Of a stretch of 64,000 nucleotides of DNA, positions 32,326-60,005 are shown in pieces (positions within the stretch are counted from its first letter, which is position 1; every line of letters starts with the position of its first letter). The position numbers were made by a program, and so were the translations under genes. Source of the DNA: an uncultured Verrucomicrobiae bacterium (GTDB taxonomy: Bacteria; Verrucomicrobiota; Verrucomicrobiia; Chthoniobacterales; JAFAMB01); contig CAWIPH010000002.1 in the NCBI GenBank assembly GCA_963837955.1, forward strand, positions 10,966-74,965, written 5' to 3'. The notes beneath the pieces are model-generated. The model did no database searches, was not told where the DNA came from, and saw only the letters and a program-made list of their open reading frames with translations.

Positions 32326-33744
32326 TTGTGCGCTGCCGGAATTAATTTGGGTATCTCGCGTCACAGCAGAGCATCTAATAGCAAGAAAGAGCTACGAAAC
32401 GATGCCGAGATACTTGAACAAATCGCGACAAACATCCTGCGACTCATCTTCTCAACTGAATATCCGAAAAATATGGTAGGAAGCCCTTTGCTAATTGCAG
32501 AAAAAGCCCGGATTCGACTGCAGTCCACCGTCGCGTCGCTCCGCGAAGGCCGGCCGACGAATCTAAACGTGATTCGGCTGCCCGATCCGGCGGATGTCGT
32601 CATTACGCCCTGTGAAGTCAATGAGTTACATGGAACGGGAACTTTGCTGCTGAGAATATTTAAGGATTCTTCCTCGATCGTTTCATTGCGGACGAGCAAT
32701 TTTTACGATCTCCCGCAGAGTTTCGGCGCCGCAAACTTCTGCTTGCCACTGGCCCAAGCTTCGCGTGCCGAAGTGCTTTCCTGGGTCAAATGGTGGCTCA
32801 GCACGACTTCTGTGCGCCGCGCTGTCTGCCTGCCTTATCTCCCGGCAGATCCTATCGTCGGTATTACCGTCAAAGAACTGTTCAATGTCCCGTTATGTAC
32901 CTACATCATGGACGACAAGAATGTCTGTGCGCAGGGAATTCCCGATGCCCTGATGGAGGAGTTGCTCGCGAAATCGGATCTGCGCCTGGTGATCTCACCG
33001 GAAATGCGTGAGGCCTACGAAAAGAAGTACCGAATGAAGTTCTGTCTGATGCCTCCGCTCGTTTCCGATAAATTGGTTAAGAGGGAGGCGGCTCCGTACT
33101 TAAATGGAGTTAAGCCTGGGCGTTCCGTTCTGATAGGTAATATTTGGGGGCAGCGATGGCTAGATTTACTGCGGAGCACGATTCGCAACAGCGGTTATCA
33201 AGTTGATTGGTATTGCAACCAGAAAAACCCGAGGGCCCTGATTTTCGACCGCCATGAACTGGAAAAGGATGGCATTCGGCTGCTTGATCCGCTCTCGGAA
33301 TCAGAACTTCCGGCGGTTCTTGCGCAGTATGCAGTCGCCATTGTGCCGTCCGATACGCTCGACGGAAGAAGTGCACCGAGTGTGCAGGCAATAGCGGAGT
33401 TGAGCCTACCGAGCCGGATTCCCTTCGTCGTCGCAACGTCACATCTGCCAATTCTCGTAATTGGACATCCAGGAACTTCCGCCGCTCGCTTTGTGGAGCG
33501 CTTTAAGCTCGGTGAGGTTGTTCCCTATGATGCCGATGCTGTGCGAAGCGCTCTTGCACGCCTTTCGAAGCCCGAAACTCAAACACTCACCAGGAGCCGC
33601 GCGGCAGCGCTCAGTGCTAGTTTTTCAGCTCGCGGTTCTGCCGATTGGATTTGGCGTTCGTTGGAAGCGGGCGAAGCCTGCGACCTTCGGTACGAAAAGC
33701 TGATGCCCCCTTCCAAGAATGGGAATTCTCCACATCACCACTGA
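32326..33744 (+). CDS. Uncharacterised protein, paralog A of a triplicated family (possible GT-B-like fold)
   Basis: It shares blocks with 46722..48126 and 58815..60005. The blocks are EVNELHGTGTLLL, IMDDKNV, LSLPSRIPFVVATSHLPILVIGHPGTSAARFVERF and ADWIWRSLEAGEACDLRYEKLMP. The track start is a TTG, and the ATG at 32473 is the more likely start. Confidence 0.6.
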   Translation: MCAAGINLGISRHSRASNSKKELRNDAEILEQIATNILRLIFSTEYPKNMVGSPLLIAEKARIRLQSTVASLREGRPTNLNVIRLPDPADVVITPCEVNELHGTGTLLLRIFKDSSSIVSLRTSNFYDLPQSFGAANFCLPLAQASRAEVLSWVKWWLSTTSVRRAVCLPYLPADPIVGITVKELFNVPLCTYIMDDKNVCAQGIPDALMEELLAKSDLRLVISPEMREAYEKKYRMKFCLMPPLVSDKLVKREAAPYLNGVKPGRSVLIGNIWGQRWLDLLRSTIRNSGYQVDWYCNQKNPRALIFDRHELEKDGIRLLDPLSESELPAVLAQYAVAIVPSDTLDGRSAPSVQAIAELSLPSRIPFVVATSHLPILVIGHPGTSAARFVERFKLGEVVPYDADAVRSALARLSKPETQTLTRSRAAALSASFSARGSADWIWRSLEAGEACDLRYEKLMPPSKNGNSPHHH

Positions 33745-33749
33745 ATTTT

Positions 33750-34782
33750 ATGAGCGAATCCGTTGACACCCAGGCTATCTACGAGCTGGAAAGCATTCTT
33801 CAGTCATTGGTGGTGAATGATACAACGCTGCTCGACGCGCTGGCCCAAATGCTCAATGCCATGCAACAGATGCAGGCCAGGAGTGAACAGAGCCAGGACA
33901 AGCTGTGTGCAGAGCTCCAAGAACTCCGCGCGGAACTGCGCACGTTGACGCTGGAAGTAATAGAAAGAAAGGCAGATGCAGTATCCGGGCGACAACCGAT
34001 CGTCGTGACAAATGACGAGTTTGCCGCCCAGAATCCAGAGCTTGGTTTGCTTGAGTATTTGTATTCCTTCTTGACCGATACGAACGCAATCGATGTCGGC
34101 GCCAACATTGGAAAAGTATCAGAGCGGCTCTTGAAATGCGGCTACACTGTCTACGCATTCGAGCCATATAGCTCCTTCGTTTCGAGAATTGGTGGAAAGG
34201 CATAAGGCGAGTCAGAAATTTCATCCATTCAATTTGGCACTCGGGGCGGTCGACAGAACGATGGATCTCCACGTCGCCTCGGACTTGTCAGGACTTAGCA
34301 AATGGGACCCGACTCTTTTTCATAGCTTGATTGAGCGGCCGATGTTGCAAGATCTGCAGTTTACCAAGACTGTTCCCGTCGAAGTCCGCAGCCTGGAAAG
34401 CTTACGCCAAAATGGGGCGATTCCGCCTACGGCCGGCGTGCTAAAGATCGACACAGAAGGGTTCGATCTGGAGGTCATCCGCGGCATGGGAGAGGGTAAT
34501 TTTTCGGCCGTGATGGCTGAGTTTTGGGATCCGGCACATCCTTTTGGCGGCCAGGCCACAGGTGGACTGGAGGGTCTTGTCCGAGAAATGAAAGGCAGAG
34601 GGTATGCCTCGCATATAGTGATCTATCACTTAGACGAAGACTCGACGATCTCCTACTATTGTAACCGCTCCGAAACAGTCCCTAATTCATGGGGCAATGT
34701 AATTTTCTTCCGTGATCATGCCCTTTTCGCGAAAGCGCTTCGCTGGTGTGAAGAGGTGCTTGTAGCCACGTTACATAGGTGA
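33750..34782 (+). pseudogene. Coiled-coil + FkbM-type methyltransferase, split by a 1-nt frameshift at about 34188
   Basis: The N-terminal part is a coiled coil (LAQMLNAMQQMQARSEQSQDKLCAELQELRAELRTL) followed by AIDVGANIGKVSERLLKCGYTVYAFEPYSSFVSR and then a stop. The next frame continues LVERHKASQKFHPFNLALGA...VLKIDTEGFDLEVIRGMG. The intact paralog at 54578..55513 is collinear across this junction. Confidence 0.65.
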
Positions 34783-34888: not shown

Positions 34889-35638
34889 GTGAATCTCAAT
34901 AATTTAGTACTTTGTTGCGGAATGATCCGTTCAGCATCAACGCTGCAATATCAAGTCGTTGCTGACCTGATTGAGCGAAACGGTCTTGGCCAACGGATCG
35001 GGTTTGCGGATCGGGAAAGCCTATCCGAAATCGTGCAAAGGTTCGAAAGGGTGGAGGGTTTCGCGATAGTTAAGGCTCATGAGATCTTGCCACTAGTCGA
35101 TGCACTCATCGCGCAAGGTCGCATTCGCCTCTTTTACACCTTTCGCGACCTGCGCGCAGTTGCTCTTTCGGTAATGCGAAAGTGGGAGATTCCATTTGCA
35201 CAGGTGATTGGTCGAAACGCCTGGCTCGACACTGCAGTCCAATCTTCTAACCATTGGCTTTCCGTCCCCGGTGTCTGCGTAAGCCGCTATGAAGACATGG
35301 TGTTGAGACTCCCGACCGAAGTCACGAAATGGGCAGACGCTCTTGGCCTAAATCTTACTTCTACCCAGGCTGACGAATTAGCAGCCAAATATTCTATCGA
35401 GGCGCAGCGGGAGCGAGTTCGCCAGGCGCGTAACCCAAAGTCAACTCAAATGAGCGAATCGAACGATTTCTTTGATCCCAATAGTTTGCTGCATCACAAC
35501 CACATACTGGACGGGTCCTTAGACGGATGGAAATCAGGACTCGAGAAATGGCAGATTCGCCAAATTGAAGGTCGGTTCTCCAGCTGGTTGTTAGATCATG
35601 GTTATCAATTGAGCACTAGTGCTCCGGTACTGAGCTAG
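34889..35638 (+). CDS. Sulfotransferase-like P-loop protein (Stf0/Sulfotransfer_3-like)
   Basis: LCCGMIRSASTLQYQ resembles the 5'-PSB loop (RSGSTL). FYTFRDLRAVALSVMRK resembles the 3'-PB motif (RDPRdvavS). The later SRYEDMV is also consistent. Confidence 0.6.
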   Translation: MNLNNLVLCCGMIRSASTLQYQVVADLIERNGLGQRIGFADRESLSEIVQRFERVEGFAIVKAHEILPLVDALIAQGRIRLFYTFRDLRAVALSVMRKWEIPFAQVIGRNAWLDTAVQSSNHWLSVPGVCVSRYEDMVLRLPTEVTKWADALGLNLTSTQADELAAKYSIEAQRERVRQARNPKSTQMSESNDFFDPNSLLHHNHILDGSLDGWKSGLEKWQIRQIEGRFSSWLLDHGYQLSTSAPVLS

Positions 35639-35640
35639 CG

Positions 35641-36411
35641 ATGAGCCAACCCACACGGCCGATGCTGCTCGACGTCCAAAATTTGACGAAAACATTTGGA
35701 AACTTCAAAGCGGTTGACGATGTGTCGTTTTTCGTTCGCCCCGGGGAAGTAGTTGGTCTGCTTGGTCCCAGTGGCGCCGGCAAGACCACCACCATCCAGA
35801 TGATTCTTGGATTGATTTCGCCCAGTGCAGGCAGCGTCCGAATCTTTGGACAACTCTTTGAGAAGAACCGTCAACAGATCCTCGAAAAAGTCAGCTTCAC
35901 GGCGCCGTACGTCGCCTTCCCGATCCGGCTCACGGTGTTCGAAAACCTAATGGTTTTCGCCCGCATCTATGATGTTCGCGATCCTGAATCAAAAATCATG
36001 GAATTGCTGCGGATGTTCTCGATAGAGGACCTCAGGAACAAACCAGTTTCTCGTCTTTCCTCCGGCGAGAACACGCGAGTCGGACTTTGTAAGGCGTTGA
36101 TGAACGATCCGAAGTTACTGGTGATGGACGAGCCGACTGCTTACCTCGATCCTCAAGTAGCGCTTCAGGTAAAGAATATCCTCCTCGATTTGCAGCACCG
36201 TTACGGAACAACGATTCTCTACAGCTCCCACAACATGGCCGAGGTGGAAGAGATGTGCAGCCGGATCATTTTTCTTAGCCGTGGCCGGGTGCTTGCGAGC
36301 GGCAGCCCCATAACAGTTACCCAGAGCATCCTGAAAGAGAATCGTCGGGAACCGGCGCTTAAAGAAGTGTTTCTACACGTCGCGAGGAGACGGCTGAATG
36401 AAACTAAATAG
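35641..36411 (+). CDS. ABC transporter ATP-binding protein (ABC-2/DrrA-like)
   Basis: It has Walker A GPSGAGKTT, the signature LSSGENTRV, and Walker B LLVMDEPT. Its end overlaps the permease start. Confidence 0.9.
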   Translation: MSQPTRPMLLDVQNLTKTFGNFKAVDDVSFFVRPGEVVGLLGPSGAGKTTTIQMILGLISPSAGSVRIFGQLFEKNRQQILEKVSFTAPYVAFPIRLTVFENLMVFARIYDVRDPESKIMELLRMFSIEDLRNKPVSRLSSGENTRVGLCKALMNDPKLLVMDEPTAYLDPQVALQVKNILLDLQHRYGTTILYSSHNMAEVEEMCSRIIFLSRGRVLASGSPITVTQSILKENRREPALKEVFLHVARRRLNETK

Positions 36412-37612
36412 AATCAAGGCCATAATCTTCCGGCACTCTTGCGAAGGGAGACGCAATTTGAGCCGGGTCACCGAGATGGTGTATTGGCCGGTGCAGAACA
36501 TCGTTGTCTGGGGGTTTTTCACAATTTATCTTACCCGGGACAACCACCTGCAGCCGGGAATAGTTAGTTTTCTCTTAGGTGCGGCCATTCTGTGGGGGAT
36601 GTTCTATGCATTCCAGCGTGATCTGGCGGCGGGCTTCCTCGAAGAACTCTGGTCTCGAAACCTCATCAACTTATTCTCTACGCCGCTGAGCATCTCCGAA
36701 TATTTGACCGGCCTCATCATTGTCAATCTGGTCAGAGCCATGGTGGGAGTTCTGGCAGCGGGCCTAACTGCGTGGCTCTGCTTCGGCTATGAAATCTCCT
36801 CGAAACTGTTAGCAGTTATTCCCTTTATGTTGAGTTTGACTCTCTTCGCGCTCGCTGTCGGTGTGATAATTACCGGTCTGATTGTCAGGTATACCACCAA
36901 GATCCAGACGCTGGCCTGGAGCTTTGCTGGCTTACTGATGCCGTTCTCGTGCGTATTCTATCCTTTTAGCTCTCTTCCCAAATGTTTGCGTCCGGTCGCC
37001 TGGGCTCTTCCCACTACTCATGCTTTCGAAGGGATGAGGCAGGCAATCGCCGGAGGAGGCTTTGCGCTGCCGCATTTCGAGTGGGGGATTATGCTAAATG
37101 CGTTCTATCTGGTGTTGGCTGTCCTGGTGTTTCGCCGGATGTTTGAATCTGCACGTGCCCGAGGTCTGCTTAGTAAAGCTAGAGTAGGGAACGTTGGGAA
37201 CGCCGGGAACGCACGGGAACGCCGACAACGCCGACAACGCCGACAACGCCGACAACGCCGACAACGCCGACAACGCCGAGAACGCCGAGAACGCCGAGAA
37301 CGCACGGGAACGCCGGCTTGTCCGACGACCGTGTCCGACGAAGCTCCTCCGCTACATCGGCGACGTTCCAAGGATCAGCGAAGTCGGAAGCCTGCCGGAG
37401 TTTCAAACGACGGAGCGAAGTTGGAGAGCGCATTTTTCGGTAGTGCCAGAAATGTGTTGCCAATCGCGAGCTCCTCTGTAAAGAATCGCCTCTGCTGCGC
37501 AACCCTCCGCGCGCCGGCAATCGGTTTCTCGGGGAATCGGCTATGGACCAGTCCATCATATTGCACAGCCATGTGCCAAAGACGGCGGGCACCAGCGTTT
37601 CGGCGCATCTAG
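36398..37612 (+). CDS. ABC-2 type transporter permease; the conserved part ends at about 37180 and the ORF then reads through a 9-bp repeat array
   Basis: About 260 aa are polytopic membrane protein (...WALPTTHAFEGMRQAI...LVLAVLVFRRMFESARARGLLSKA). This is followed by GNVGNAGNARE(RRQ)x6(RRE)x3 and ~95 aa of Arg-rich, non-protein-like sequence. That tail overlaps the next gene start at 37543. Confidence 0.7.
   Translation: MKLNRIKAIIFRHSCEGRRNLSRVTEMVYWPVQNIVVWGFFTIYLTRDNHLQPGIVSFLLGAAILWGMFYAFQRDLAAGFLEELWSRNLINLFSTPLSISEYLTGLIIVNLVRAMVGVLAAGLTAWLCFGYEISSKLLAVIPFMLSLTLFALAVGVIITGLIVRYTTKIQTLAWSFAGLLMPFSCVFYPFSSLPKCLRPVAWALPTTHAFEGMRQAIAGGGFALPHFEWGIMLNAFYLVLAVLVFRRMFESARARGLLSKARVGNVGNAGNARERRQRRQRRQRRQRRQRRQRRERRERRERTGTPACPTTVSDEAPPLHRRRSKDQRSRKPAGVSNDGAKLESAFFGSARNVLPIASSSVKNRLCCATLRAPAIGFSGNRLWTSPSYCTAMCQRRRAPAFRRI
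37187..37314. repeat. 9-bp tandem repeat array
   Basis: The order is GGGAACGTT, GGGAACGCC, GGGAACGCAC, GGGAACGCC, GACAACGCC x6 (37224-37277), GAGAACGCC x2, GAGAACGCAC, GGGAACGCC. It belongs to the same unit family as 25528-25572 and 29991-30036. Confidence 0.95.
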
Positions 37613-38387
37613 CTGGGATATTCGGCAAGCTTCATTTGAGTCATTCCCATGAAGATCCCAATTTCATATTAACCCCGCCGATTCTCGAAACTCTTTTTGA
37701 GATCAACCCATTCTTGCGATCATTGTCCTCTCATCACCTTCGCATTTTTCCGAGAAAGATTCTTGGCCGGCCGGCCCATTACATCACTTTCCTGCGCCAT
37801 CCAACGAACACCCTTCTTTCTCGCCTAAGTTACGCGCAACAGAATTTTAAAAATCTGCCCGCGAAGGTAAAAGAATTTTGGCCGGACGAGACGCCTTGCC
37901 TTTCCTTGCGGACCCTCGCCCAATGGTATCTCGACAAATTGGGGGCGACCGAATGCTCTGGCCAGACTTGTTTTTTTTGCCACCCGAACATTTTGGCGAA
38001 AGATCAGTTTCGGATTTTGGTGCTGGTGTTGTTAACCCTGGTCTCGCATCGAACATGCTTAAGCATTTTCTCTTTGTGGGAATTGTTGAAGACATGTCCA
38101 TCAGTCTCGACATTCTGGACGCTCGGCTGCGAGGGCTGGGAATCAGGCTGGGTCGGGAAGGTTTTTTGGGGAGGTTTCGGCACCAGAACCGGAGCCACCG
38201 GAGAAATCTGGCTTGGCTTTGCCAGGAGGACGAGATTGGTCGACGCGTCCTGGCCTGCAACGCCAGTGACCGTCTCCTCTATTCGGAATTCCGCAAAAGA
38301 CTATGGGCTAGCCACTGCGAAATGTTGAGCGGCCAAGACTTCAAGTATCGGTTTTGCCCATACGAAATCGCAAACAACTTGTACTGA
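37543..38387 (+). pseudogene. Sulfotransferase family-2-like protein, frameshifted at a T8 homopolymer (37971-37978)
   Basis: The N-terminal part reads HSHVPKTAGTSVSAHL...YITFLRHPTNTLLSRL (PKTAGTS and (F/L)LR.P motifs) up to GQTCFF. ORF 37878..38387 continues PPEHFGERS...LKHFLFVGIVEDMSISLDILDARLRGLGI. The intact paralog at 55637..56527 is collinear (PQTRFFCSPES...LERFLFVGVTEQIEKSVKLL). A T9 tract would restore a single frame. Confidence 0.65.
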
Positions 38388-38716: not shown

Positions 38717-39805
38717 CTAACGGTTCACCGGCTCTGCGCTACTCAGATGTTCTTTGAGCACACTCGTTGACACGCTGTCAGCTCGACTTACTTCCCCGAT
38801 GTTCCTGGTTTCGCGAACGTTGTAGGTGCTTTTACCCTGCGACTCATAAAACGTCCGCATGAGCATTTCGGCCAGGAGCCCGAGCAGGATACACATCATC
38901 GCGATCATGAACGTCATCACGACGATCAAAGGTAACGGCGTTGTGATGAAGTAGGTATTGTGAAACAATTTCAAGTAAAGCATCCACAAGAAGGCACAGC
39001 CGCTCACTGCCAGGCTGAATACGCCGCAACCACCAAAGAGATACATCGGTTTACTGGCAGCCCGATCGAGGAACTTTACGACTAGCAGATCTAGCAGGAC
39101 CTTTAAGACCCGCTCGAATCCATACTTGGACTCTCCCGTCCGGCGCGGGTGATGGTTAACCACCAGCTCGGTAATCTTTGCTCCGTGCCAGGAGGCGTAG
39201 ATCGGCAAAAAACGGTGCATCTCACCGTATAGGCGGATTCCATCGACTACCTGTCTTTTGTACGCTTTGAGCGAGCAGCCGAAGTCATGCAGCCGTACTC
39301 CAGACACCGCTGAAATCAGCCGGTTAGCCAGGATGCTCGGGATGTTGCGCTGGATGACATTATCCTGACGGTCTTTTCGCCAACCCGAAACAACGTCGTA
39401 GCCCTGTGCCAAAAGTTCTAACATCCGCGAAATGTCGGCCGGATCATTTTGCCCATCCCCATCCACCGGAATAATGACGTCACCCTTAGCGAAATCGAAA
39501 CCTGCCATCATTGCGGCGGTCTGGCCGAAGTTTCGTTTGAAGTGGATCACCCGGATCCGCTGATCCGAATCGGCCAATCGATCCAGGATTTCCGCGGAAT
39601 TATCCGTGCTACCGTCGTTGATGAAGATAATTTCCCAAGGCTTCCCCAGCCGCGTCAGCTCCTGTCTAACTCCCTGGCTGAGGTCGACCAGGGCCTCCTC
39701 TTCGTTGTAAACGGGGACAACAATCGAAATCAACACCGTGGCCAGCTTCGTAAGAGAACCGTAAATGTCAACCAACTGGACGCACGCCTTCCCGAATTTC
39801 TGCAA
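38717..39805 (-). CDS. GT2 polyprenol-phosphate sugar synthase-type glycosyltransferase (ArnC/GtrB/DPM1-like)
   Basis: ISIVVPVYNEEEAL...IIFINDGSTDNSAEIL...IRVIHFKRNFGQTAAMMAGFDFAKGDVIIPVDGDGQNDP is the characteristic GT2 block. It has two C-terminal TM helices. The track start is a TTG, and the GTG at 39736 (VLISIVVP) is an alternative. Confidence 0.85.
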   Translation of the reverse strand: MQKFGKACVQLVDIYGSLTKLATVLISIVVPVYNEEEALVDLSQGVRQELTRLGKPWEIIFINDGSTDNSAEILDRLADSDQRIRVIHFKRNFGQTAAMMAGFDFAKGDVIIPVDGDGQNDPADISRMLELLAQGYDVVSGWRKDRQDNVIQRNIPSILANRLISAVSGVRLHDFGCSLKAYKRQVVDGIRLYGEMHRFLPIYASWHGAKITELVVNHHPRRTGESKYGFERVLKVLLDLLVVKFLDRAASKPMYLFGGCGVFSLAVSGCAFLWMLYLKLFHNTYFITTPLPLIVVMTFMIAMMCILLGLLAEMLMRTFYESQGKSTYNVRETRNIGEVSRADSVSTSVLKEHLSSAEPVNR

Positions 39806-44486: not shown

Positions 44487-45419
44487 ATGTCCTCTAACAA
44501 CCAGATGGACGTTCTTTACTCTGTTCAATACCAACTCGATGTCCTGACAGACCAAGTCGACCGGGCGAAGATACTGGCTGCGCAACCGATATTGCGTGAG
44601 TTCCGAAATTTGAGATCCCCTATTCCGCTCGCCGAAGCGGAGTTCCGGGTATTCTCCCAATTTGGAGATGATGGTATCCTCCAGTACGTTGTAACCAGAC
44701 TTGACTTGCCCAAAGCTGAGCGTCGGTTCATCGAATTTGGAGTGGAGGATTATCGAGAATCCAACACTCGGTTTCTGTTACTTAACAATAATTGGAGCGG
44801 GCTGGTGATGGATGGTAGCGAGGATCACATTACGTCTATTCGGCGTAATCAGATCTACTGGAGGTATGATCTTACTGCTTTGGCGCACTTCGTCACCCGC
44901 GAGAACATTAACTCGATTTTCGAGGAGGCCGAGTTTTCGGGCCCGATTGGAATCCTGAGCATCGATGTTGACGGTAACGACTACTGGATCTGGGAAGCCA
45001 TCAGTACGGTAGATCCCGCCGTCGTCATTGTTGAATATAACGGGATCTTTGGGAGCCGCGAGGCAGTGACGATTCCATATCAGGCGGATTTTCTTCGGCA
45101 AAATGCTCATTACTCCTTCCTATACTGGGGAACATCGCTTCAGGCGCTCTGTCATCTCGCTGCCCAAAAAGGGTACGTCTGGATCGGTTGCAATAACGCA
45201 GGAAACAACGCCTACTTCGTGCGAAAGGAGCATGCTCGCGCATTTCATCAGCCAACTTTGCCGGAGGATTTCGTTGCTGCAAAATTCAGGGAAGGAAGAG
45301 ACAAAGAGGGCAATCTTAGCTACGTCGGGCAAGAAAAGGGGTTTGCCCTGATTAAGGATCTTCCTGTCTGGGATGTGGTCAGGAATGAGACACGTGTCGT
45401 TGGTGATCTCGTGCGATAG
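44487..45419 (+). CDS. Hypothetical protein, possibly methyltransferase-fold (FkbM-like)
   Basis: The blocks FSQFGDDGILQYV...FIEFGVEDYRESNTRFL...GILSIDVDGNDYWIWEAI...VIVEYN are seen in uncharacterised glycan-locus proteins. The family assignment is uncertain. Confidence 0.45.
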   Translation: MSSNNQMDVLYSVQYQLDVLTDQVDRAKILAAQPILREFRNLRSPIPLAEAEFRVFSQFGDDGILQYVVTRLDLPKAERRFIEFGVEDYRESNTRFLLLNNNWSGLVMDGSEDHITSIRRNQIYWRYDLTALAHFVTRENINSIFEEAEFSGPIGILSIDVDGNDYWIWEAISTVDPAVVIVEYNGIFGSREAVTIPYQADFLRQNAHYSFLYWGTSLQALCHLAAQKGYVWIGCNNAGNNAYFVRKEHARAFHQPTLPEDFVAAKFREGRDKEGNLSYVGQEKGFALIKDLPVWDVVRNETRVVGDLVR

Positions 45420-49210: not shown

Positions 49211-49645
49211 GTTGATCTGGTGGCAAATTGACCGATAGACCAATCGAAGTTAGCGATTGAATAGACGGCCCTCCAGACGAGATCGATGACCTCAAATGCC
49301 CACTACCCCCTTAATGGGCAAGGTCAGAAGTGCGCTGGGTTTCGTTTCTTAGCACCTCTCCACTAGTTCCTCTAGAAGAGGGAAGCCATCTCGGTGTCCG
49401 GCAAACACCCCACGAAGCCCCTCGATCGCGCCTTGAGCTTCACGACGAATAGCCAACGGTCTGCCACTCCAAAAACGGGGCTAGAAGACAGGAAGCGGAA
49501 CAACTAAATATCCTGCATTCCCGCCCCGTCCCATATTGAACATCTCATTTTTCAGGCGAAGCAATCATTCGGGCCGCGCTCAACGGATGTTTTGAAAGTA
49601 TTTGCATTTCGAGCTGCCGCGATCTTCTCTCGGTACAGTTTCCTT

Positions 49646-52297: not shown

Positions 52298-53095
52298 ATG
52301 AAAAGTCTTCTCGAGCTACCAAAGCGACAGTATCTGATCCGGCAATACCTAGCTCGTCAAATCGGCCAGCGTTACAAGGGTACAGCTTTAGGGGTTCTGT
52401 GGTCTCTAGCTTCGCCGATCTTCATGCTGCTGGTCTATACGTTTGTGTTCGCTACGGTCATGCATGCTCATTTTGGAATTTCAAAGTCCGAGACAACGCT
52501 GGACTATGGCTTGGCGCTTTTCTGTGGGTTGAACCTTTTCAATTTCTGCGGCGATGTCATCATGCGCTCTCCCTCACTAATTCTTAGTCAGCCCAACCTG
52601 GTTAAGAAAGTTGTGTTCCCGTTGGAGATTCTTCCACTCATCAGCACGCTGGATGCCTTGGTCCATTGTGTCATTGCCTTCATTCCCCTGTTCCTAGCTC
52701 TGGCGATCTTGCACGGTACTGTGCCTTGGTCTTTTGTTTTTTTGGCCGCCTTTCTGATTCCTGCGGCGCTGATTGCGCTCGGATTAAGTCTGTTACTTTC
52801 CGCCATCGGAGTCTTTATCCGCGACGTGCAAAACATGATGACTCCAGCAGTAACTGTCCTCATGTTCGGAAGCGCTGTCTTTTATCCCCTCGCGACCGTG
52901 CCCGACTGGATCCGGCCATGGTTTCAGTTAAATCCCTTAGCCCTGATCATTGAAAACTCCCGAAGAACTCTCATTTGGGGATTGCCCTTGGGGATACCGC
53001 AGCTTGCTTTCGCCAGCTTGTTGGGATTGGTTCTTGTTATAGTGGGATTTTTGTTTTTTGAGAAGTCCAAGCCGGCTTTTGCCGATGTGATGTAA
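52298..53095 (+). CDS. wzm: Polysaccharide ABC-2 exporter permease (Wzm/TagG type)
   Basis: YLIRQYLARQIGQRYKGTALGVLWSLASPIFMLLVYTFVF is the canonical Wzm N-terminal block. The protein has 6 TM segments and is 265 aa. Confidence 0.85.
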   Translation: MKSLLELPKRQYLIRQYLARQIGQRYKGTALGVLWSLASPIFMLLVYTFVFATVMHAHFGISKSETTLDYGLALFCGLNLFNFCGDVIMRSPSLILSQPNLVKKVVFPLEILPLISTLDALVHCVIAFIPLFLALAILHGTVPWSFVFLAAFLIPAALIALGLSLLLSAIGVFIRDVQNMMTPAVTVLMFGSAVFYPLATVPDWIRPWFQLNPLALIIENSRRTLIWGLPLGIPQLAFASLLGLVLVIVGFLFFEKSKPAFADVM

Positions 53096-53101
53096 GCCGC
53101 T

Positions 53102-54538
53102 GTGAGTAGCCTTTCTGACCTTTCTATTTGCGAGACGCCGCCGGTTGCTGCGCAGGAGACGTTGCTCAGTCTCGATCAAATCTCTAAGTCCTATCGGTTG
53201 TGGAACCGTCCTTATGACCGGCTCTTCTATGGGATCTGGAACCAGGTTCCTGGGTATGCTCCGGATCTGATCAGACGTCTGGCAAATCGTCAAAAGGCTG
53301 GACTCGGAAAGGAAGTTTTCGCCCTCGCTGAAGTGACTCTGTCGATTCGGAAAGGTGAAAGCGTTGGGATTATCGGCCGCAACGGCAGCGGAAAGAGTAC
53401 CCTCTTGCAGCTTATTGCCGGGGTCCTTCAGCCTACTTCGGGACGAATTCGGGTGGATGCGAAGCGCGTAACAGCTTTGCTTGAATTGGGCAGTGGGTTT
53501 GATCCGAATTTCACGGGGCGGCAAAACGTTCTGCTGCACGGTTCACTGCTTGGTCTCACCGAGGAAGAGAATCACGCGCGGCTTAGTGAGGTCCTTGATT
53601 TCTCTGAGATCGGCGATTATTTCGATCGCCCGGTCAAGACCTATAGCAGTGGCATGATAGTTCGACTAGCGTTTGCGTCTTCCATCACCGTCCGAGCCGA
53701 TTTATTGATCGTGGACGAGGCGCTAGCGGTCGGCGACATCTTCTTTCAGCAGAAGTGCTTTCACAAGATTCGGGAGTTGGTCAAGGCCGGAGTGACCATC
53801 CTGCTCGTCTCGCATGACTTGCGCTCGATCAGCGAGTTTTGTGATGAGACGCTTTTGCTGGACCACGGTCGGGTCATCTTCTTCGGAGACTCTAACGTGG
53901 CGATTGACCGCTACTACGGCATGACAAAATCGTTCATTTTGGCCGCGCCGGGCGGAGCACGGAAACAGGCTCCGGCCTCGAGCCTATCATCTGTCGAGGA
54001 ACCTCCCCCGGTGCTGATGGAGTCGATTCCCCGGCCAAAGGTGGTTCCATATGAAGACGCCGTTGCGACGTTCCTTCATTTCGCTCTCCTGAATCATGAA
54101 GGAAAGCCTACGAACCTGTTTCGACAAGGCGAATGGCTGACGTTGCTCTTTGACGTCGAAGTGTTGGCTGACGTCGAAAACTTAAGCGCAGGGGTTGTCT
54201 TTCGGGATGACCGGAGAACGTTTTTGCACAGCAAGTACGAATTTCAGACTGATCTAAGGAGTCTGCGCATTGGCAAAAAGGGAGATCATTTTAGAGTCAG
54301 TTATGAGGTTCGTCTCGATGTCGCGCCGGGCCACTATACCCTATCGCTTGACCTGATATCTGTGCCCGCCGAGGCAATAGCTGGCGGAAAATTGGCCTTT
54401 CTCGATTACGAACGCCATTTCCGTCGCGTTTGTCATGCTGGAGATCTTGTTGCGATCACCGTGGGCTTTAATCCTAGCCGTGAAGGCGCGGAATTCTCTC
54501 ACCTCGGGCTCTTCGACCTGCCCACCCGTTTCGACTGA
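53102..54538 (+). CDS. wzt: Polysaccharide ABC exporter ATPase (Wzt/TagH type) with a ~220-aa C-terminal extension
   Basis: It has Walker A GRNGSGKSTL, the signature YSSGMIVRLAFA, and Walker B LLIVDEALAVGD. Residues ~255-478 form an extra beta-rich domain (...FLHFALLNHEGKPTNLFRQGEWLTLLFDVEVLADV...HYTLSLDLISV...), positioned like the Wzt C-terminal glycan-binding domain. Confidence 0.85.
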   Translation: MSSLSDLSICETPPVAAQETLLSLDQISKSYRLWNRPYDRLFYGIWNQVPGYAPDLIRRLANRQKAGLGKEVFALAEVTLSIRKGESVGIIGRNGSGKSTLLQLIAGVLQPTSGRIRVDAKRVTALLELGSGFDPNFTGRQNVLLHGSLLGLTEEENHARLSEVLDFSEIGDYFDRPVKTYSSGMIVRLAFASSITVRADLLIVDEALAVGDIFFQQKCFHKIRELVKAGVTILLVSHDLRSISEFCDETLLLDHGRVIFFGDSNVAIDRYYGMTKSFILAAPGGARKQAPASSLSSVEEPPPVLMESIPRPKVVPYEDAVATFLHFALLNHEGKPTNLFRQGEWLTLLFDVEVLADVENLSAGVVFRDDRRTFLHSKYEFQTDLRSLRIGKKGDHFRVSYEVRLDVAPGHYTLSLDLISVPAEAIAGGKLAFLDYERHFRRVCHAGDLVAITVGFNPSREGAEFSHLGLFDLPTRFD

Positions 54539-54577
54539 TTGGAACTCCCGATACCGGCGAGATAGAAACGTCGATTT

Positions 54578-55513
54578 CTACCTCGATAATGAGGCCGCCC
54601 GGAAGCGCGGCAGTTCTCCCTGGCACCAGTGAAATGCTTTCAAGAACAATTGATAGTCGTGAAAGAAAAGGATTTTTCCCCAACCCACTTTTGACGCACT
54701 CGTCAGATTTGTTGCCATCCGAACGAACTCTTCCCCTTCGACCCGAAAGATGATGATATGCCAGTAATACTCTCGGTCGCGCATTTCGCCAATGACGTCG
54801 GATGAGTTAAAAGGCCGTTGGATCTTGCTATTGCGGTCTTCTCCCTGGAATTCGGCTTGAACGACGGCTGGACGAACTGAACCGAGTCCCCGCACGACCT
54901 CAAGCTCGAGTCCTTTGGCGTCAATCTTCAGAAAATCGATGCTCCCCGGGACCGTTCCGGACGCGGCCAGGGCTGCGAGGGTCGTTGCCGTCGAGGAGTT
55001 CGATTCGGGGGATCCAAGCGCTAAATTGAAGATTCTAACACGTGGTCGACCAGCCATTCGAGCGTTCAATCTTTCGAAGGTTTCGGGTACTGCTTCAAAG
55101 CAAAACACCTCATAGCCGATATCCAGAACTGCCTCTGCAAAGTCACCCGAGTTGGCGCCGACGTCGAAAAGCACACGGTTCGGAAGGAAGTTGTAAAGGA
55201 ATCCAGCCAAATCAGATTCTGGCTCACTTTGCGAGAACATATCGGTCCACAACCATGGTTCGGCCCGACCAGCAGACCAAGCCATAACCGATTTGAGGCG
55301 GTTCACATGTTCAGAAAGTCGCCGAATTTGGTCCTTGGTTCTAATGCCCGTCTGTTCAGTTCTACCAAGGCCCGATTCCAGCCGCCCCAAATGGTTTTCC
55401 AGCCGTCCCAAATGGCTGATTGTAACTTCCAGTTTGTGGCGGACGTCATCTATCCCCAAACCGCTTTGGGCTCTTCGGGAAATTGAGTCTCTAATTTTGT
55501 TTACGATCGACAT
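54578..55513 (-). CDS. Coiled-coil + FkbM-type methyltransferase (intact paralog)
   Basis: A GGAGG motif lies 9 nt upstream of the ATG at 55513. The N-terminal heptad region is HLGRLENHLGRLESGLGRTEQ...IRRLSEHVNRLKS. The FkbM blocks are LFDVGANSGDFAEAVLDIGYEVFCFEAVPETFERL...FLKIDAKGLELEVVRGLG. Confidence 0.7.
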   Translation of the reverse strand: MSIVNKIRDSISRRAQSGLGIDDVRHKLEVTISHLGRLENHLGRLESGLGRTEQTGIRTKDQIRRLSEHVNRLKSVMAWSAGRAEPWLWTDMFSQSEPESDLAGFLYNFLPNRVLFDVGANSGDFAEAVLDIGYEVFCFEAVPETFERLNARMAGRPRVRIFNLALGSPESNSSTATTLAALAASGTVPGSIDFLKIDAKGLELEVVRGLGSVRPAVVQAEFQGEDRNSKIQRPFNSSDVIGEMRDREYYWHIIIFRVEGEEFVRMATNLTSASKVGWGKILFFHDYQLFLKAFHWCQGELPRFRAASLSR

Positions 55514-55636
55514 GAAAGGTTCACCTCCTAAACCCGTAACAGCCTCATTAGAAGCTGATCCGGCCCAGTATGTCAAAATCCTGCCTCCTCGGCGGCTGAA
55601 GCTCTGGCCTGTTTCATGCTAGGGAGGTAGGGAACC

Positions 55637-56527
55637 ATGGATGTGGCACATTTCCCCCTCTTCCTTCACTGTCATATCCCAAAGACGGCCGGTGTAAGTG
55701 TAGGCCAGCTTCTTGATTCCACTTTTCATCCTTATCACTTCAATCATTACCATTCTGATCCCCTCTATGTTTTGACTCCTCCAAGGCTCGAGACACTTCT
55801 CAAGATCACACCAACGCTAAGGTCAATCTCTTCGCATAGCCTGCGCACCTTTCCGCGTCAGGTCTGCGGTCGGAAAACCTGTTATATCACTTTTCTTCGT
55901 GATCCTACGGCTGCGTTTGTCTCGCTGCTGAAATATTGCCGTGCTGAATACCGAGCAGGACACCTTTCGGCGGAAGCGCGATGGATGTGGCCGGATGACA
56001 CTCCAACCCGAAGTCTGCGCGATCTTGCTGAATGGTTTCTCGACCAGATCGGAGCTGAGAATTCCTATTCGCCGCAAACGCGTTTTTTCTGTTCTCCGGA
56101 ATCAATGCGAAAAGCTGGTTTCACGGTGGAACATCAGTATGGCGAAGATTGCTTCGAAGTGGCCTCTATGATCTTAGAAAGATTTTTGTTTGTCGGGGTT
56201 ACCGAGCAGATAGAGAAAAGCGTCAAGCTGCTGATCGGCAAGCTAAAGAAACTCGGCATCCAGGTACAGGAACCCGCGTTACCCCACTCGAATCGATCCA
56301 GTTCGAGCGAGGATCTTTCCTGGCTGACGATGAGGGACAAGGTCGGAAAACGTGTGCTAACCTGCAACGAGGTTGACCAGCAGCTTTACGATCGATTCCG
56401 GCTCGCTCTGGAACGCGAATATGCTCGGTTTCAGGAATCGGCTGAAATTTTGGATATTTCCGAGGCTGAACAAACTGCCGGGCCGATCTGTGAATGGGCT
56501 GCGTCTAGGTTTCTGGAGAAGGTTTAA
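55637..56527 (+). CDS. Sulfotransferase family-2-like protein (intact paralog of 37543..38387)
   Basis: HCHIPKTAGVSVGQLL resembles the 5'-PSB loop. YITFLRDPTAAFVSLL resembles the 3'-PB motif. An RBS GGGAGG precedes the ATG. Confidence 0.65.
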   Translation: MDVAHFPLFLHCHIPKTAGVSVGQLLDSTFHPYHFNHYHSDPLYVLTPPRLETLLKITPTLRSISSHSLRTFPRQVCGRKTCYITFLRDPTAAFVSLLKYCRAEYRAGHLSAEARWMWPDDTPTRSLRDLAEWFLDQIGAENSYSPQTRFFCSPESMRKAGFTVEHQYGEDCFEVASMILERFLFVGVTEQIEKSVKLLIGKLKKLGIQVQEPALPHSNRSSSSEDLSWLTMRDKVGKRVLTCNEVDQQLYDRFRLALEREYARFQESAEILDISEAEQTAGPICEWAASRFLEKV

Positions 56528-56581: not shown

Positions 56582-57982
56582 TTACCAGAGACCGGCGGTG
56601 AGCAGGGCCTCTCGGGCAAACACCGCGTCCTGTTGAATGAGTCGACCGGTTGGAGAGTGTCGCCAACAACCGGCATTGTCGAAATACTCAAACCCGAGGT
56701 CGCGAAGCTTTGCCATCATTTCGAAAAATGTCTTTGCCGTCGGCGCATATCGGCCCATCGAGAGTTCAAGGCAAATAACATCGACTTGCTGCAAGAATCG
56801 AGTGGCGCCATCCAGGACGAGATGCTCCCCGAACTGTACATCGATTTTCAGCAGCCCTTTCCCCGAAATCGATTGTTGAGAACTGATTTCGTCCAGCGTG
56901 CGGACCGGAACCAGAACACGCTCCCACTGACGGTCGGGGGAGTGCTCGGCACCATCCAGAAAGCTACTTGAATAAAGATCTGGAGAGACATTCAATTCTG
57001 TCTCTGAGTTTTTGTCACCCGCGGCACTTGCGATAGCGACATATTCCGGGTGCAGCGTGTATATAGAGTTATCCAGTTGCCGGTATTTCTCGAGCAACGG
57101 CTCGATCAAATAGAACCGGCTATTTGGGAAAACTCGGCTAGCGATGAGAGACCAGTAGCCGGTTGAGGCTCCGACATCGACGATAAATTCTGGCCGATAT
57201 CCCGCCGCTCTTAGCCGATAGAGAAAATGGAAACATGGGTGCATGCTCCAGTGGATGCTTCTTGGTGCCGATGGATCTACGTAGGGGGCCGTACGATCTG
57301 CAGTTTCTCGACTCGCACGCTTCTCGGGCTCATCGCTAGCCGGAAAACCGTCCTCCAAGGAATCCAGGATGAGGCGCAGGATTTCGTTACTTTGCCGCGA
57401 GCCCTTTTCGCCGGGGGTTTTCTCGGCGAGTGAGAATTCCGGCAAGAGCCAGACAGGTTTACCCACGCTGGTTTGCACATAGGAGCGAGTCGACGCCGAC
57501 ACAGCGAAGGTGATTCTGGCCTTCCCGAGAGCCTCTGCCAAAAGGCCGCCGGCCCGGTTATCCTTTTGAAAGCAGTTGTCCTGGGCCAAGACGAGAGCCA
57601 TCGGCGATCCCGTAATATCGGCGGTCGCAGTTGCCGCGAAAAGACCTTCGGCATCCTTGGCTACAGCCACTACCCGATCGATTCGATATCTATTCAGAAT
57701 CTCAGCAATCCGGAAATAGGCCAAGGACCGCCCTTTGGTATTTCCCTCAATTAATGGAATGTCCGGAATGGGTAACTCTGTTTCGGCCTCTTTGGCGTCG
57801 ACGAAGAGGGCGACCAAGTTGTTTCCGGTAAATAATCGCGAGCTATCGAGGTGAGCGAATGACTGACTATGCGGATCGGATGGGACCACCAGAAAACAAG
57901 CCGCGGACGATCGAGGTTCGTCGGCCCTTATTTTGGATTTCCCTGCGGTGCCGAAAAATTTATGAAAATCGAGCGATGCCAT
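56582..57982 (-). CDS. Two-domain protein: unknown ~230-aa N-terminal domain fused to a FkbM-type methyltransferase
   Basis: The C-terminal half reads FIVDVGASTGYWSLIASRVFPNSRFYLIEPLLEKYRQL...LLKIDVQFGEHLVLDGATRFL...VICLEL, which is FkbM-like. The N-terminal half reads ...VALFVDAKEAETELP...RVVAVAKDAEGLFAATATADITGSPMALVLAQD... and has no recognised family. Confidence 0.7.
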   Translation of the reverse strand: MASLDFHKFFGTAGKSKIRADEPRSSAACFLVVPSDPHSQSFAHLDSSRLFTGNNLVALFVDAKEAETELPIPDIPLIEGNTKGRSLAYFRIAEILNRYRIDRVVAVAKDAEGLFAATATADITGSPMALVLAQDNCFQKDNRAGGLLAEALGKARITFAVSASTRSYVQTSVGKPVWLLPEFSLAEKTPGEKGSRQSNEILRLILDSLEDGFPASDEPEKRASRETADRTAPYVDPSAPRSIHWSMHPCFHFLYRLRAAGYRPEFIVDVGASTGYWSLIASRVFPNSRFYLIEPLLEKYRQLDNSIYTLHPEYVAIASAAGDKNSETELNVSPDLYSSSFLDGAEHSPDRQWERVLVPVRTLDEISSQQSISGKGLLKIDVQFGEHLVLDGATRFLQQVDVICLELSMGRYAPTAKTFFEMMAKLRDLGFEYFDNAGCWRHSPTGRLIQQDAVFAREALLTAGLW

Positions 57983-58022
57983 CGAATAAAATTCTATCTA
58001 ATGCCTGTTTGAGAGCCGGACC

Positions 58023-58781
58023 TCAATGACGCCCCACAATAAAATACCGTGGATCTTGGAACAACGGGAGATCGCTCCGCGCGAAAAGAAGGTCGAATTG
58101 CCAGAAGGCGCTGTCTACTTCGCGATAGAGGATGTCAAAAACGTCCAGGGGACGAAAGCCTAAGTCGAGCATATAGCGGCAAAGGTCCCAGAATGGAACG
58201 GCTGGTCCGCCGAAGGTGAAATTGTAAGCCTCAATTACGATTATGTTCGTTTGTTTCAAGGTCTTGCTAGCGCCACTTAGGATGGGAATCTCGACTCCGT
58301 GGGTGTCCAGTTTGATCATGAACGGCCCGGGGAGCGATTGACTTTCTACCAGGCTGTCGATTGTGTTGACCGGACAAGGCTGGTAGTTCTGATTCAACGG
58401 ACTTTCAGCCAGATGGCCGACCAGTGGATCCGAGGCATCGAAATAAAGTTGGCCCGCCTTGGCTCCTACGGCGGTAACGGCAAAATGCCAGTTAGGGTTC
58501 TTCCGGCAGACCTCGGTGAGTTTCGGGAGATGAATTTGGTTTGCGTCTACCAGCAGATGCTCTCTACCGGGAAAATATCTGGCAAAAGCTTTAGACCAGA
58601 TGCCGTCAGAGGCGCCGATGTCGATCAACGATGCGATTTCGATCTGGTGACCCTGCAAACGACGGAGCGCGTCATCCCGAGTAGGTTCAGCACCTCCCAG
58701 CCGGTGAGCGCGCACCTGGATGCCAAATAATCGGCCGCAGATCGAGTTGATGATCGAAAACGCAAAGGCTACCAGGTTCAT
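58023..58781 (-). CDS. FkbM-family methyltransferase
   Basis: LIDIGASDGIWSKAFARYFPGREHLLVDANQIHLPKL...MIKLDTHGVEIPILSGASKTL...IIVIEAY matches the FkbM pattern. Confidence 0.75.
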   Translation of the reverse strand: MNLVAFAFSIINSICGRLFGIQVRAHRLGGAEPTRDDALRRLQGHQIEIASLIDIGASDGIWSKAFARYFPGREHLLVDANQIHLPKLTEVCRKNPNWHFAVTAVGAKAGQLYFDASDPLVGHLAESPLNQNYQPCPVNTIDSLVESQSLPGPFMIKLDTHGVEIPILSGASKTLKQTNIIVIEAYNFTFGGPAVPFWDLCRYMLDLGFRPLDVFDILYREVDSAFWQFDLLFARSDLPLFQDPRYFIVGRH

Positions 58782-58814
58782 CTTCCGGGGCGATCGATGC
58801 CCTAACAGCCTCCG

Positions 58815-60005
58815 TCAACTGAAAATGCGTTCGAATCGCTCATCGATCGGGTGACCGCATTCCAATGAACGCCAGATGAAGTCGGCCAACCCGTGCGAAG
58901 AAAACGCTGCGCTGAGTTGGTTGGCATGAATGCGGATCTCATTGAAACGGGACGGGCTGGTAACCTGGTGAACCGCCCTTTGGAGTGCGCCCGAATCGTA
59001 GGGACATGATGTCCCAAGATCAAGTTTGCGAACGAATTTGGCGGCCGCCGTTTCTTCGTGGCCAAGCACGATAATAGGAATATTGGCGGTGGCCATCAGG
59101 TAAATGATCCGGGACGGCAAGCTGGACTTGGCCAGCCAGTTGTGGCTGCTGCCTTTTTCTAACGTCCCGCTCGGAACGATCGCAAAATCGGCGTTGCGCA
59201 GCTCTTCCACCAGCTCCGGGTCGGGCAGCATCGAGCGAAGGTAGATACCTTCGGACTCCAGTTCCGGAGGATCGAGGACAATAAATGGTTTCCCCGCGTT
59301 GCCGAACCAGTCGACCGATAGACCGGAAGCCCGGACAGTTGCTCGAAAACTGTTTAGCATGTCCAGGCTCCAGACGTTTCCAATCAAAGCTCCTCTAGGT
59401 GATTGGCGCTTATATCGAGCCAACCCGCTCGGGGCGAACAATGCAGGATTGGCCACCGGGGGTATAATCCAAAATTTAGTCTTAAACTTCTCACCGTAAG
59501 CGCGACAGAGAGGCTCCGAAATCGCGAAGCGAATATTGGCTTGGGCGACCAAGGCTGACATCAAGTCATCAGATATTTCCTGTACGTGAATGTTTTGATC
59601 ATCCATTACGTAGAGGGCGATCGGCGCGTCAAAAATCTGGGCTGCCGCTAAAGTGGAGAGGACATCGTCGGGGTAGAAGGGCACCGAAAGAATTCTTCTT
59701 ATCCCGGCCCCGCTCAGCTGGGCTCGGATTTCCTTCCGAGCGCTTTCCAAAGAGCCGCCCGGATGCTCTACGTGAAGAGAGTGATCACCGATCTCATTCC
59801 GCTCGAAAAACTTCCGAGAATGGCAAATCAGGAGTTGTTCTTCTTCTTGAAAGATGTTCTTTAGCAGCGCTCCGGTACCGTGACGAAGAGAGACTTCCGC
59901 GTGAGTTACTAACAGAGATGCCCGATCGAAATCGGCCAGATCGCGTTGAGCGGCGGCTTTTGCTGGGGCGCCTTTCCAGAATTTTCTAATAACCTTCAAC
60001 ATCAA
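58815..60005 (-). CDS. Uncharacterised protein, paralog C of the triplicated family (intact)
   Basis: It carries EVSLRHGTGALLK, VMDDQNI, SSLPSRIIYLMATANIPIIVLGHEETAAAKFVRKL and ADFIWRSLECGHPIDERFERIFS. It is 396 aa and is the first gene of a minus-strand operon with two FkbM genes. Confidence 0.65.
   Translation of the reverse strand: MMLKVIRKFWKGAPAKAAAQRDLADFDRASLLVTHAEVSLRHGTGALLKNIFQEEEQLLICHSRKFFERNEIGDHSLHVEHPGGSLESARKEIRAQLSGAGIRRILSVPFYPDDVLSTLAAAQIFDAPIALYVMDDQNIHVQEISDDLMSALVAQANIRFAISEPLCRAYGEKFKTKFWIIPPVANPALFAPSGLARYKRQSPRGALIGNVWSLDMLNSFRATVRASGLSVDWFGNAGKPFIVLDPPELESEGIYLRSMLPDPELVEELRNADFAIVPSGTLEKGSSHNWLAKSSLPSRIIYLMATANIPIIVLGHEETAAAKFVRKLDLGTSCPYDSGALQRAVHQVTSPSRFNEIRIHANQLSAAFSSHGLADFIWRSLECGHPIDERFERIFS

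Follow-up and report, generated by a model that had tools for sequence, protein, structure and literature searches.

An unnamed protein family with a predicted GT-B fold, coupled to FkbM methyltransferases, in a glycan locus of an uncultured Verrucomicrobiae bacterium

The retaining glycosyltransferases of the GT4 family (PimA, MshA, BshA, ManT; Pfam models Glycos_transf_1 and Glyco_transf_4) are built of two Rossmann lobes in the GT-B arrangement, with a glycine-rich loop after strand N-beta-1 and a 'PS' ending strand C-beta-4, and one of them, ManT, takes part in the synthesis of methylmannose polysaccharide (PMC9883506). The same architecture is predicted for a family represented by three diverged paralogs, here called A, B and C, in a glycan locus of an uncultured Verrucomicrobiae bacterium (assembly GCA_963837955.1, contig CAWIPH010000002.1, positions 10,966 to 74,965); this whole stretch of 64,000 nucleotides (nt) is referred to below as the window, and positions are counted from its first letter. 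Like ManT, the family is associated with sugar methyltransferases, whose genes adjoin its own. It differs from GT4 enzymes in having no Pfam GT4 match at a useful threshold, in the lack of conservation of the EX7E glutamates and the pyrophosphate-binding lysine, in a signature of its own (HGTG, MDD(Q/K)N, GNxW and SLPxR), and in an extra helix before C-alpha-4. The glucosyltransferases Gtf3 and GtfC of serine-rich-repeat adhesin glycosylation (PF26337; structure 9htx) also have the GT-B fold and match the family structurally, but they perform protein O-glycosylation in Firmicutes, whereas the family belongs to Wzm/Wzt glycan loci.

Glycosyltransferase and methyltransferase modules are combined in pathways that depend on an ATP-binding cassette (ABC) transporter, for example in the terminator WbdD of Escherichia coli O8/O9a, which goes with the carbohydrate-binding domain of Wzt, and in the methyl-rhamnosyltransferase WsaE of Geobacillus. 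The family resembles these proteins as a cytoplasmic, multi-module arrangement beside Wzm/Wzt with a physically coupled methyltransferase; a Wzt C-terminal domain is encoded in the window, and relatives of the family are embedded in giant proteins containing tetratricopeptide repeats (TPR) or coiled coils. Its domains are, however, unrelated in sequence to WbdD and WsaE, its methyltransferases are of the FkbM type, three to four modules occur in a single locus, and what is seen here is a genetic coupling to methyltransferases. The known FkbM enzymes, among which is NoeI, are to our knowledge stand-alone proteins. The partner enzymes in the window are assigned to this family by TIGR01444, above its cut-off. 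A precedent for a role in the O-methylation of glycans is given by NoeI, for which a link to the 2-O-methylation of Nod factors has been reported (Jabbouri et al. 1998, as cited in PMC8678110). No description of an FkbM domain fused to a GT-B-like domain, or to the N-lobe alone, was found in the literature.

The locus is not a new kind of system, since the GT-B fold and the exporter are already known, as is the principle by which a glycosyltransferase is paired with a methyltransferase. Three things are new: a large family that has no name and carries an active-site signature of its own, the systematic way in which this family is partnered with or fused to FkbM methyltransferases, and a chimera of its N-lobe with an FkbM domain. 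On the evidence of the predicted structure and of the gene context, we favour, with moderate confidence, the view that A, B and C are true glycosyltransferase modules and that partner FkbM enzymes methylate what they make, in a glycan exported by Wzm/Wzt.

The three paralogs and their relatives

Paralog A (32326-33744, forward strand) was called mechanically as an intact open reading frame (ORF) of 472 amino acids (aa), and its identity is supported by translation, BLASTP and the hidden Markov model (HMM) of the family (E 9e-144). This ORF over-extends, and the true start is probably the ATG at 32473 (M50), giving a protein of ~423 aa, because the alignment with the closest homolog (P0165) begins there. 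Paralog B (46722-48126, forward strand) lies in two frames (46722-47879 and 47773-48126) owing to a 1-nt frameshift at 47844. Paralog C (58815-60005, reverse strand) is an intact ORF of 396 aa that probably starts at the ATG at 60002 and encodes 395 aa, because its 94%-identical ortholog (P0001) has this length. The three proteins are collinear: in BLASTP, C is 36% identical to A over 374 aa (E 5e-72) and 33% identical to B over 302 aa (E 6e-52). An earlier note, made from the letters of this DNA, had described the three ORFs by a set of shared motifs, and all of these are present in all three translations, namely EVxxxHG(T/A)G, MDD(K/Q)(N/S), LP(S/G)RI...GH..T.AA(R/K)FV and D(W/F)(I/V)(W/F)RSLE.G...D.R(Y/F)E(K/R). 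When the family HMM was run against all six frames of the window, it recovered exactly A, B and C, as well as one partial copy of the N-terminal domain in an FkbM gene (56582-57982; the reverse-strand frame matched is 56585-57997).

The same note could place these proteins in no named family, and the sequence searches were likewise empty. No Pfam model of a glycosyltransferase family matched A, B or C at E<=1, and when 40 members were scanned singly against Pfam no family match was obtained, the best being a GT4-type one of E 0.037 in one member only. NCBIfam models did not match the family; a profile search of all PDB sequences gave no match, neither Gtf3 nor GtfC being found at E<=10; tblastn of the family against 72,556 plasmids found nothing; and no description of the family was found in the literature. 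A faint precomputed match to PF26337 (Gtf3_C) is attached to three relatives made solely of two tandem family domains, no single match reaching E 0.001, and it is absent from all other listed members. By sequence, A, B and C therefore fit no named family; the fold-level assignment to the well-known GT-B superfamily, described below, lowers the novelty proposed earlier.

The family is widespread. The first homolog search returned 196 homologs, all annotated 'hypothetical', and the scanning of genomes added 96 relatives, which are spread over 79 loci of at least six phyla. The hosts include Verrucomicrobiota, Acidobacteriota, Planctomycetota, Myxococcota, Gemmatimonadota and others, as well as many Cyanobacteria (Microcystis, Calothrix, Leptolyngbya, Nodosilinea). 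An exhaustive HMM search yielded 946 clusters at 50% identity with E<=1e-3, 289 of them with E<=1e-30; many of the 946 are multidomain and carry up to three family domains each. In current annotation, the members are 'hypothetical' and the fused forms are mislabelled simply as 'FkbM family methyltransferase'. Defining the family would thus improve the annotation of O-antigen and exopolysaccharide loci in soil Verrucomicrobiota, Acidobacteriota and bloom-forming cyanobacteria, which are environmentally dominant and poorly studied.

Each paralog has closer relatives outside the window than inside it. A is 55% identical to its closest homolog; B is 71% identical to its best relative (P0269) and ~45% identical to proteins of cyanobacteria and myxobacteria; and for C the best relatives are at 94% and 61% identity. 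Because each is 45-61% identical to proteins of other lineages versus 33-36% to its siblings, A, B and C are, as judged from these identities, old co-occurring subfamilies and not the product of a recent triplication; the earlier note had spoken of a triplication inside one locus. Comparison of C with its ortholog on a 92.7%-identical metagenomic contig (L083) gave a dN/dS (ratio of nonsynonymous to synonymous substitution rates) of 0.20, and C is thus under purifying selection. Both A and C retain every family-conserved residue in the residue table, and, to go by their sequences, look functional in this genome.

The state of B is different. Its frameshift is caused by a single extra base at 47844 (gtt-a-gag; context cgc ttc gtt A gag cat ttt), and it stands in the deposited assembly, from which a truncated product of 385 aa is on record (P0268). 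Removal of the extra base restores a protein of 467 aa that aligns end to end, and across the junction, with intact homologs; the intact orthologs of B at 71% identity have 477-484 aa. Some substitutions are shared by B with its own subfamily (I162T, S163H, P183A and N210S), and others are unique to B even inside it (T44A, W212S, S295N and G235E), W212 and S295 being near-universal in the family. Because of the frameshift and the loss of these two near-universal residues, B is probably a decaying copy and not a working catalyst here, unless the base at 47844 is an assembly error.

The N-terminal extension of B, upstream of the GT-B-like domain, contains a tandem repeat (46803-46885, forward strand; Tandem Repeats Finder: 21 bp x 4, period 21, 4.0 copies, 80% matches) that encodes four RIDDRL(R/N) heptads. 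These heptads could give a short coiled coil. In some ABC-dependent O-antigen systems, it is a coiled coil that serves as the ruler of chain length.

Predicted fold and conserved residues

The AlphaFold model of C, run with a 40-sequence alignment, has a predicted local distance difference test score (pLDDT) of 90.4 and a predicted template modelling score (pTM) of 0.89, and consists of two Rossmann-like lobes (N-lobe ~29-180, C-lobe ~204-335) followed by C-terminal helices. A Foldseek search of the model against PDB gave 272 matches at E<=1e-3; every one of the 50 listed is a GT-B enzyme, with ManT (7qsg, E 1.5e-12) at the top. Further best matches are PimA (2gej, template modelling (TM) score 0.64), MshA (3c4q, TM 0.65), HepE (4xsr, TM 0.65), BshA and GtfA; GtfC (9htx) was also matched (E 2e-9, TM 0.60/0.69). 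The guess of the earlier note, that the two-lobed layout is that of GT-B enzymes, is well borne out by the quality of the model and by this list. A specific link to ManT of methylmannose polysaccharide synthesis was considered and dropped, as PimA, MshA, BshA and others score nearly equally in Foldseek.

Alignment of the family profile with a small GT4 alignment by hhalign gave a probability of 69.5% and E 4e-5, in the C-lobe only, and paired the GT4 'PS' strand with the 'VPSG' of the family. The relation to GT4 is thus fold-level kinship and not membership: the family is predicted from the model to have a GT-B fold and to be distantly related to the GT4/GT5 group.

The glycine-rich loop is present as H42-G43-T44-G45, following strand 29-34, between N-beta-1 and N-alpha-1, and G43 and G45 are invariant in the 261 domains compared. 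The loop equivalent by topology to that of the N-lobe histidine of GT4 enzymes (PimA H118) is M134-D135-D136, without a conserved histidine, the hhalign alignment covering the C-lobe only; the conserved histidine of the family, H42, sits in the glycine-rich loop instead. Across the 261 domains, conservation extends in the N-lobe to E37, H42, G43, G45, P109, M134-D135-D136 and Y170, and in the rest of the protein to G209-N210-x-W212, W233, P278, S295-L-P297-x-R299, P310, G315, F324, G331 and Y336. This pattern of conserved polar residues is consistent with an active site.

Methyltransferase coupling and the function it suggests

The coupling to methyltransferases is the main functional clue. 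Each copy had been said to lie next to FkbM genes, and this applies to A and C but not to B. The FkbM partner of A (33750-34782, forward strand) begins 5 nt past the stop of A. C is followed directly downstream, after a 33-nt gap, by an FkbM gene (58023-58781, reverse strand; PF05050; TIGR01444 70 bits vs a 37.7-bit cut-off), and further downstream by the chimera described below (56582-57982); another FkbM gene is nearby (61359-62201, forward strand; PF05050 E 8e-19; TIGR01444 94 bits vs a 37.7-bit cut-off). The gene directly downstream of B (48200-49210, forward strand) encodes instead an S-adenosylmethionine (SAM) methyltransferase of Methyltransf_9/CmoB-like type (PF08003 E 9e-12; TIGR00452 below cut-off). 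A 1-nt frameshift near 34185-34189 divides the partner of A into two overlapping ORFs (33645-34205 and 34189-34782), of which the first has the TIGR01444 N-terminal motif and the second a Pfam match to Methyltransf_21; the junction reads EPYSSFVSR | LVERHKASQKFHPFNLALG. The two single-base frameshifts, in B and in the partner of A, fall inside 14 kb and both in family or methyltransferase modules; either errors of the assembly or recent pseudogenisation could explain them.

Beyond this genome, the link proved stronger than the earlier note had claimed, with fusions of family and FkbM domains in both orders and an adjacency conserved across phyla. The 79 loci were searched with proteins of this window, and FkbM detection used only its FkbM proteins. 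With these probes, an FkbM domain fused to a family domain was found in 20 of the 79 loci and a separate FkbM gene within 3 kb in 41, either arrangement occurring in 45, and Wzm/Wzt was present in 22. Relatives of the C type are also fused to Methyltransf_24. In three Microcystis loci (L040, L047 and L049; ~8.8-11.9 kb in each), proteins of ~1025 aa consist of two tandem family domains and an FkbM domain and are followed by at least one more FkbM gene; no literature on these proteins was found. The order of C and its FkbM gene recurs in the ortholog contig L083, and the module of family gene plus FkbM is conserved in L081 and L083. The gene order 60021-61322, C and FkbM of this window has a counterpart in a Chthoniobacterales metagenome-assembled genome (MAG), where a family gene stands between an FkbM gene and a divergently transcribed gene of 431 aa; the 431-aa gene, found in L081/L082, has no Pfam match and corresponds to 60021-61322 in position.

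Giant relatives (P0209, 2388 aa; P0192, 1878 aa; P0181, 1563 aa; P0134, 1908 aa) carry, besides the family domain, long TPR arrays and FkbM, radical-SAM, GT4, KpsC/S-like and polysaccharide pyruvyl-transferase domains, and to judge from these domains look like whole glycan assembly lines in single polypeptides. Combinations of this sort are characteristic of the multi-module enzymes found in pathways that depend on an ABC transporter.

The FkbM gene at 56582-57982 (reverse strand, 466 aa; PF05050 52.5 bits vs a 22.7-bit cut-off) encodes a chimera, in which the N-terminal ~180 residues are homologous to the N-terminal Rossmann lobe of the family and an FkbM domain replaces the GT-B C-lobe. The chimera matches C in BLASTP with E 5e-5 and the family HMM with E 7e-10, and alignment of its own family profile (32 sequences of ~462 aa, annotated 'FkbM family methyltransferase') with the family profile by hhalign gave a probability of 99.5% and E 1.5e-22 over residues 48-185. 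The AlphaFold model of the chimera (pLDDT 79.7) has the strand and helix order of the N-lobe of C, followed by a class I methyltransferase domain. Foldseek of this model returned methyltransferase matches only, for the C-terminal half (class I SAM), and the homology of the N-lobe is therefore based on hhalign and on the order of secondary structure elements. The same lobe, with degenerate motifs, forms the front half in ~50 clusters of FkbM methyltransferases. In the chimera HGTG is absent and MDDQN is changed to LAQDN, so by its sequence this lobe is non-catalytic. Given that the N-lobe of GT-B enzymes generally binds the acceptor (PMC9883506), the simplest reading would be that the methyltransferase has borrowed a lobe recognising the same glycan.

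These observations are compatible with the following mechanism. Members of the family would be cytoplasmic enzymes acting as modules of a surface-glycan assembly line that depends on the ABC transporter Wzm/Wzt. The C-terminal Rossmann lobe would bind the activated sugar donor and the N-terminal lobe the lipid-linked glycan acceptor, and transfer would be performed by residues of the cleft (E37, H42-G-T-G45, D135/D136, N210/W212 and S295-L-P-x-R299). The adjacent or fused FkbM enzyme would then O-methylate the newly added sugar or its neighbour, and the carbohydrate-binding domain of Wzt could recognise one such methylated end as the cap. The three subfamilies may differ in sugar or linkage specificity, and the N-lobe of the 56582-57982 methyltransferase may be its means of docking, either to the same acceptor or to the family protein.

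A more far-reaching version, which we put forward only tentatively, is that this is a new glycosyltransferase family at the level of the CAZy classification, with a non-canonical donor site (SLPxR and GNxW, without EX7E and the pyrophosphate lysine), which together with FkbM forms a machine that adds a sugar and then methylates it, often within one fused protein. In this version, a copy of the acceptor-binding N-lobe would have been joined to the methyltransferase, allowing the two enzymes to hold the same end of the glycan, and in Verrucomicrobiota, Cyanobacteria (Microcystis among them) and Acidobacteriota arrays of such modules might produce surface glycans or caps with many O-methyl groups. 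Should its members prove to be catalytic, the family would be a sizeable group of glycosyltransferase-like proteins spanning phyla (~950 clusters at 50% identity), and the tight methyltransferase coupling points to methylated glycans that have received hardly any characterisation in these organisms. The changed residues of the donor site, and a methyltransferase that has taken over a GT-B lobe, also offer testable cases of modular evolution in glycan assembly lines.

Several points weigh against the predicted glycosyltransferase role. The TM scores of 0.60-0.65 and identities of 10-14% for the best GT4 matches in Foldseek (E 1e-12 to 1e-9) amount to a fold-level assignment only; the GT-B fold also hosts proteins that are not glycosyltransferases, and UDP-GlcNAc 2-epimerases (1o6c and 1f6d) are among the matches listed, with E ~5e-9. 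The association with FkbM is incomplete, 34 of the 79 loci having no FkbM nearby, although many are short contigs and the probes were those of this window. The main reason for caution is that the nucleotide-binding residues of GT4 enzymes are missing. Of the GT4 signature residues listed in the ManT paper (PMC9883506), the C-lobe glutamate that binds the donor ribose (PimA E282, MshA E324, ManT E321) is absent: the invariant glutamate of GT4 aligns with W290 of C in hhalign, or with L303 in an alternative ungapped register, and in this segment no acidic residue is conserved at >=85% among the 261 domains. The EX7E motif (PimA E274/E282) is likewise absent, the segment reading (D/E)x..HxWLA(R/K)(A/S)SLPSR with S295, P297 and R299 conserved instead, as is the pyrophosphate-binding arginine or lysine after C-beta-1 (PimA R196/K202), where the GT4 lysine stands opposite the variable D215 and the loop is G209-N210-x-W212. 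The donor, and even the chemistry, could therefore be unusual.

One possible explanation might be that the family has the GT-B fold and performs a different reaction, either transfer of something other than a sugar (polyol-phosphate, as in TagF, or a pyruvyl/ketal group) or nucleotide-sugar chemistry as in the 2-epimerases, with the methyltransferases acting at another site. The missing ribose glutamate and pyrophosphate lysine or arginine fit such a role, as do the epimerases among the structural matches, and the giant proteins with pyruvyl-transferase and KpsC/S-like GT-B domains illustrate how varied the chemistry of this fold is in such loci. We nevertheless think it unlikely, since the top-ranked structural neighbours are bona fide glycosyltransferases, mainly of GT4, the only signals at the level of sequence are to the GT4 C-lobe and to Gtf3_C, and the Pfam models of pyruvyl transferases, TagF-type proteins, KpsC/S and epimerases matched none of the 40 members scanned, even at E<=1.

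Another explanation, in our opinion distinctly unlikely, could be that the family is a non-catalytic module for glycan binding or docking, which recruits or positions FkbM on the growing polymer or sets chain length. The loss of GT4 donor-binding residues would be expected of such a module, the changes at conserved sites in B could be taken as tolerance, and the ~50 FkbM clusters that have kept the degenerate N-lobe alone imply that this lobe works without catalysis. However, the polar residues maintained by the full-length members, in 261 domains and many phyla, form a strict set that spans both lobes, whereas the methyltransferases with the N-lobe only have lost exactly HGTG and MDD, which is the pattern expected of catalytic full-length proteins and a non-catalytic remnant; and the deviations of B accompany a frameshift, suggesting decay over tolerance. 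A lineage-specific, non-functional expansion of pseudogenes or junk ORFs, a case the earlier note had also provided for, could account for the frameshift of B in the deposited assembly with its unique losses of W212 and S295 and for the frameshifted partner of A, but it is very improbable overall and refuted for A and C, which are intact with every conserved residue, since C is under purifying selection and the closer relatives of each paralog lie in other phyla, within a family of several hundred clusters.

The surrounding glycan locus

According to Pfam and NCBIfam scans, the glycan cluster spans from ~25.7 kb to past 62 kb of the window. Besides the paralogs, it encodes two GT4 enzymes, an ArnC/PgfS-like GT2 and a DUF6056 membrane protein, as well as a short-chain dehydrogenase/reductase (SDR) of dehydratase/epimerase type, an aldo-keto reductase, a DegT aminotransferase, a WbuC cupin and an AsnB-type amidotransferase. 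It also contains two sulfotransferases, two ABC exporter sets and at least 11 methyltransferase genes, six of them FkbM-type. The earlier suggestion that A, B and C are the core catalysts or scaffolds of the pathway is unproven, the locus also holding the two GT4 enzymes, the ArnC-like GT2, the DUF6056 protein and the GT-A-like gene described below.

The permease Wzm (52298-53095, forward strand; Pfam ABC2_membrane) and the ATPase Wzt (53102-54538, forward strand; Pfam ABC_tran and the C-terminal carbohydrate-binding domain PF14524 Wzt_C, E 6e-13) are, by these domains, the ABC exporter of the pathway. An FkbM-domain protein (54578-55576, reverse strand; PF05050 E 4e-9) adjoins them.

Divergent from C is a gene of 433 aa (60021-61322, forward strand), which has no Pfam, NCBIfam or PDB sequence match and in which a GT-A-like N-terminus (FNRPE, EDD) was read by eye. 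Homologs of it adjoin family genes in 10 of the 79 loci, and all that were checked come from Verrucomicrobiota or from unassigned MAGs; the gene may represent another unannotated glycosyltransferase family. Two further ORFs of the cluster, both on the forward strand (37543-38328, 261 aa; 44487-45419, 310 aa), have no Pfam or NCBIfam match. A scan for promoters and terminators around C found fewer promoter-like sites than in shuffled sequences.

The SDR (30137-31183) and the aminotransferase, both neighbours of the paralogs, were considered as clues to the donor sugar, but no donor is put forward, as the NCBIfam matches of the SDR all fall below their cut-offs and point in general terms to NDP-sugar 4,6-dehydratases and epimerases.

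The ArnC/PgfS-like polyprenyl-phosphate GT2 (38717-39805, reverse strand) and the multi-pass DUF6056 membrane protein (49592-51160, forward strand) are both found in the locus. The pairing of such a GT2 with a multi-pass membrane protein is typical of the periplasmic side-chain glycosylation of an exported polymer. The first exporter set consists of an ATPase (35641-36411) and a permease (36398-37612), the second being Wzm/Wzt (52298-54538), and a sulfotransferase-like gene adjoins each of them (34889-35638 and 55637-56527). The presence of two exporter sets and of these sulfotransferases hints either at two glycans or at a product that is sulfated as well as methylated.

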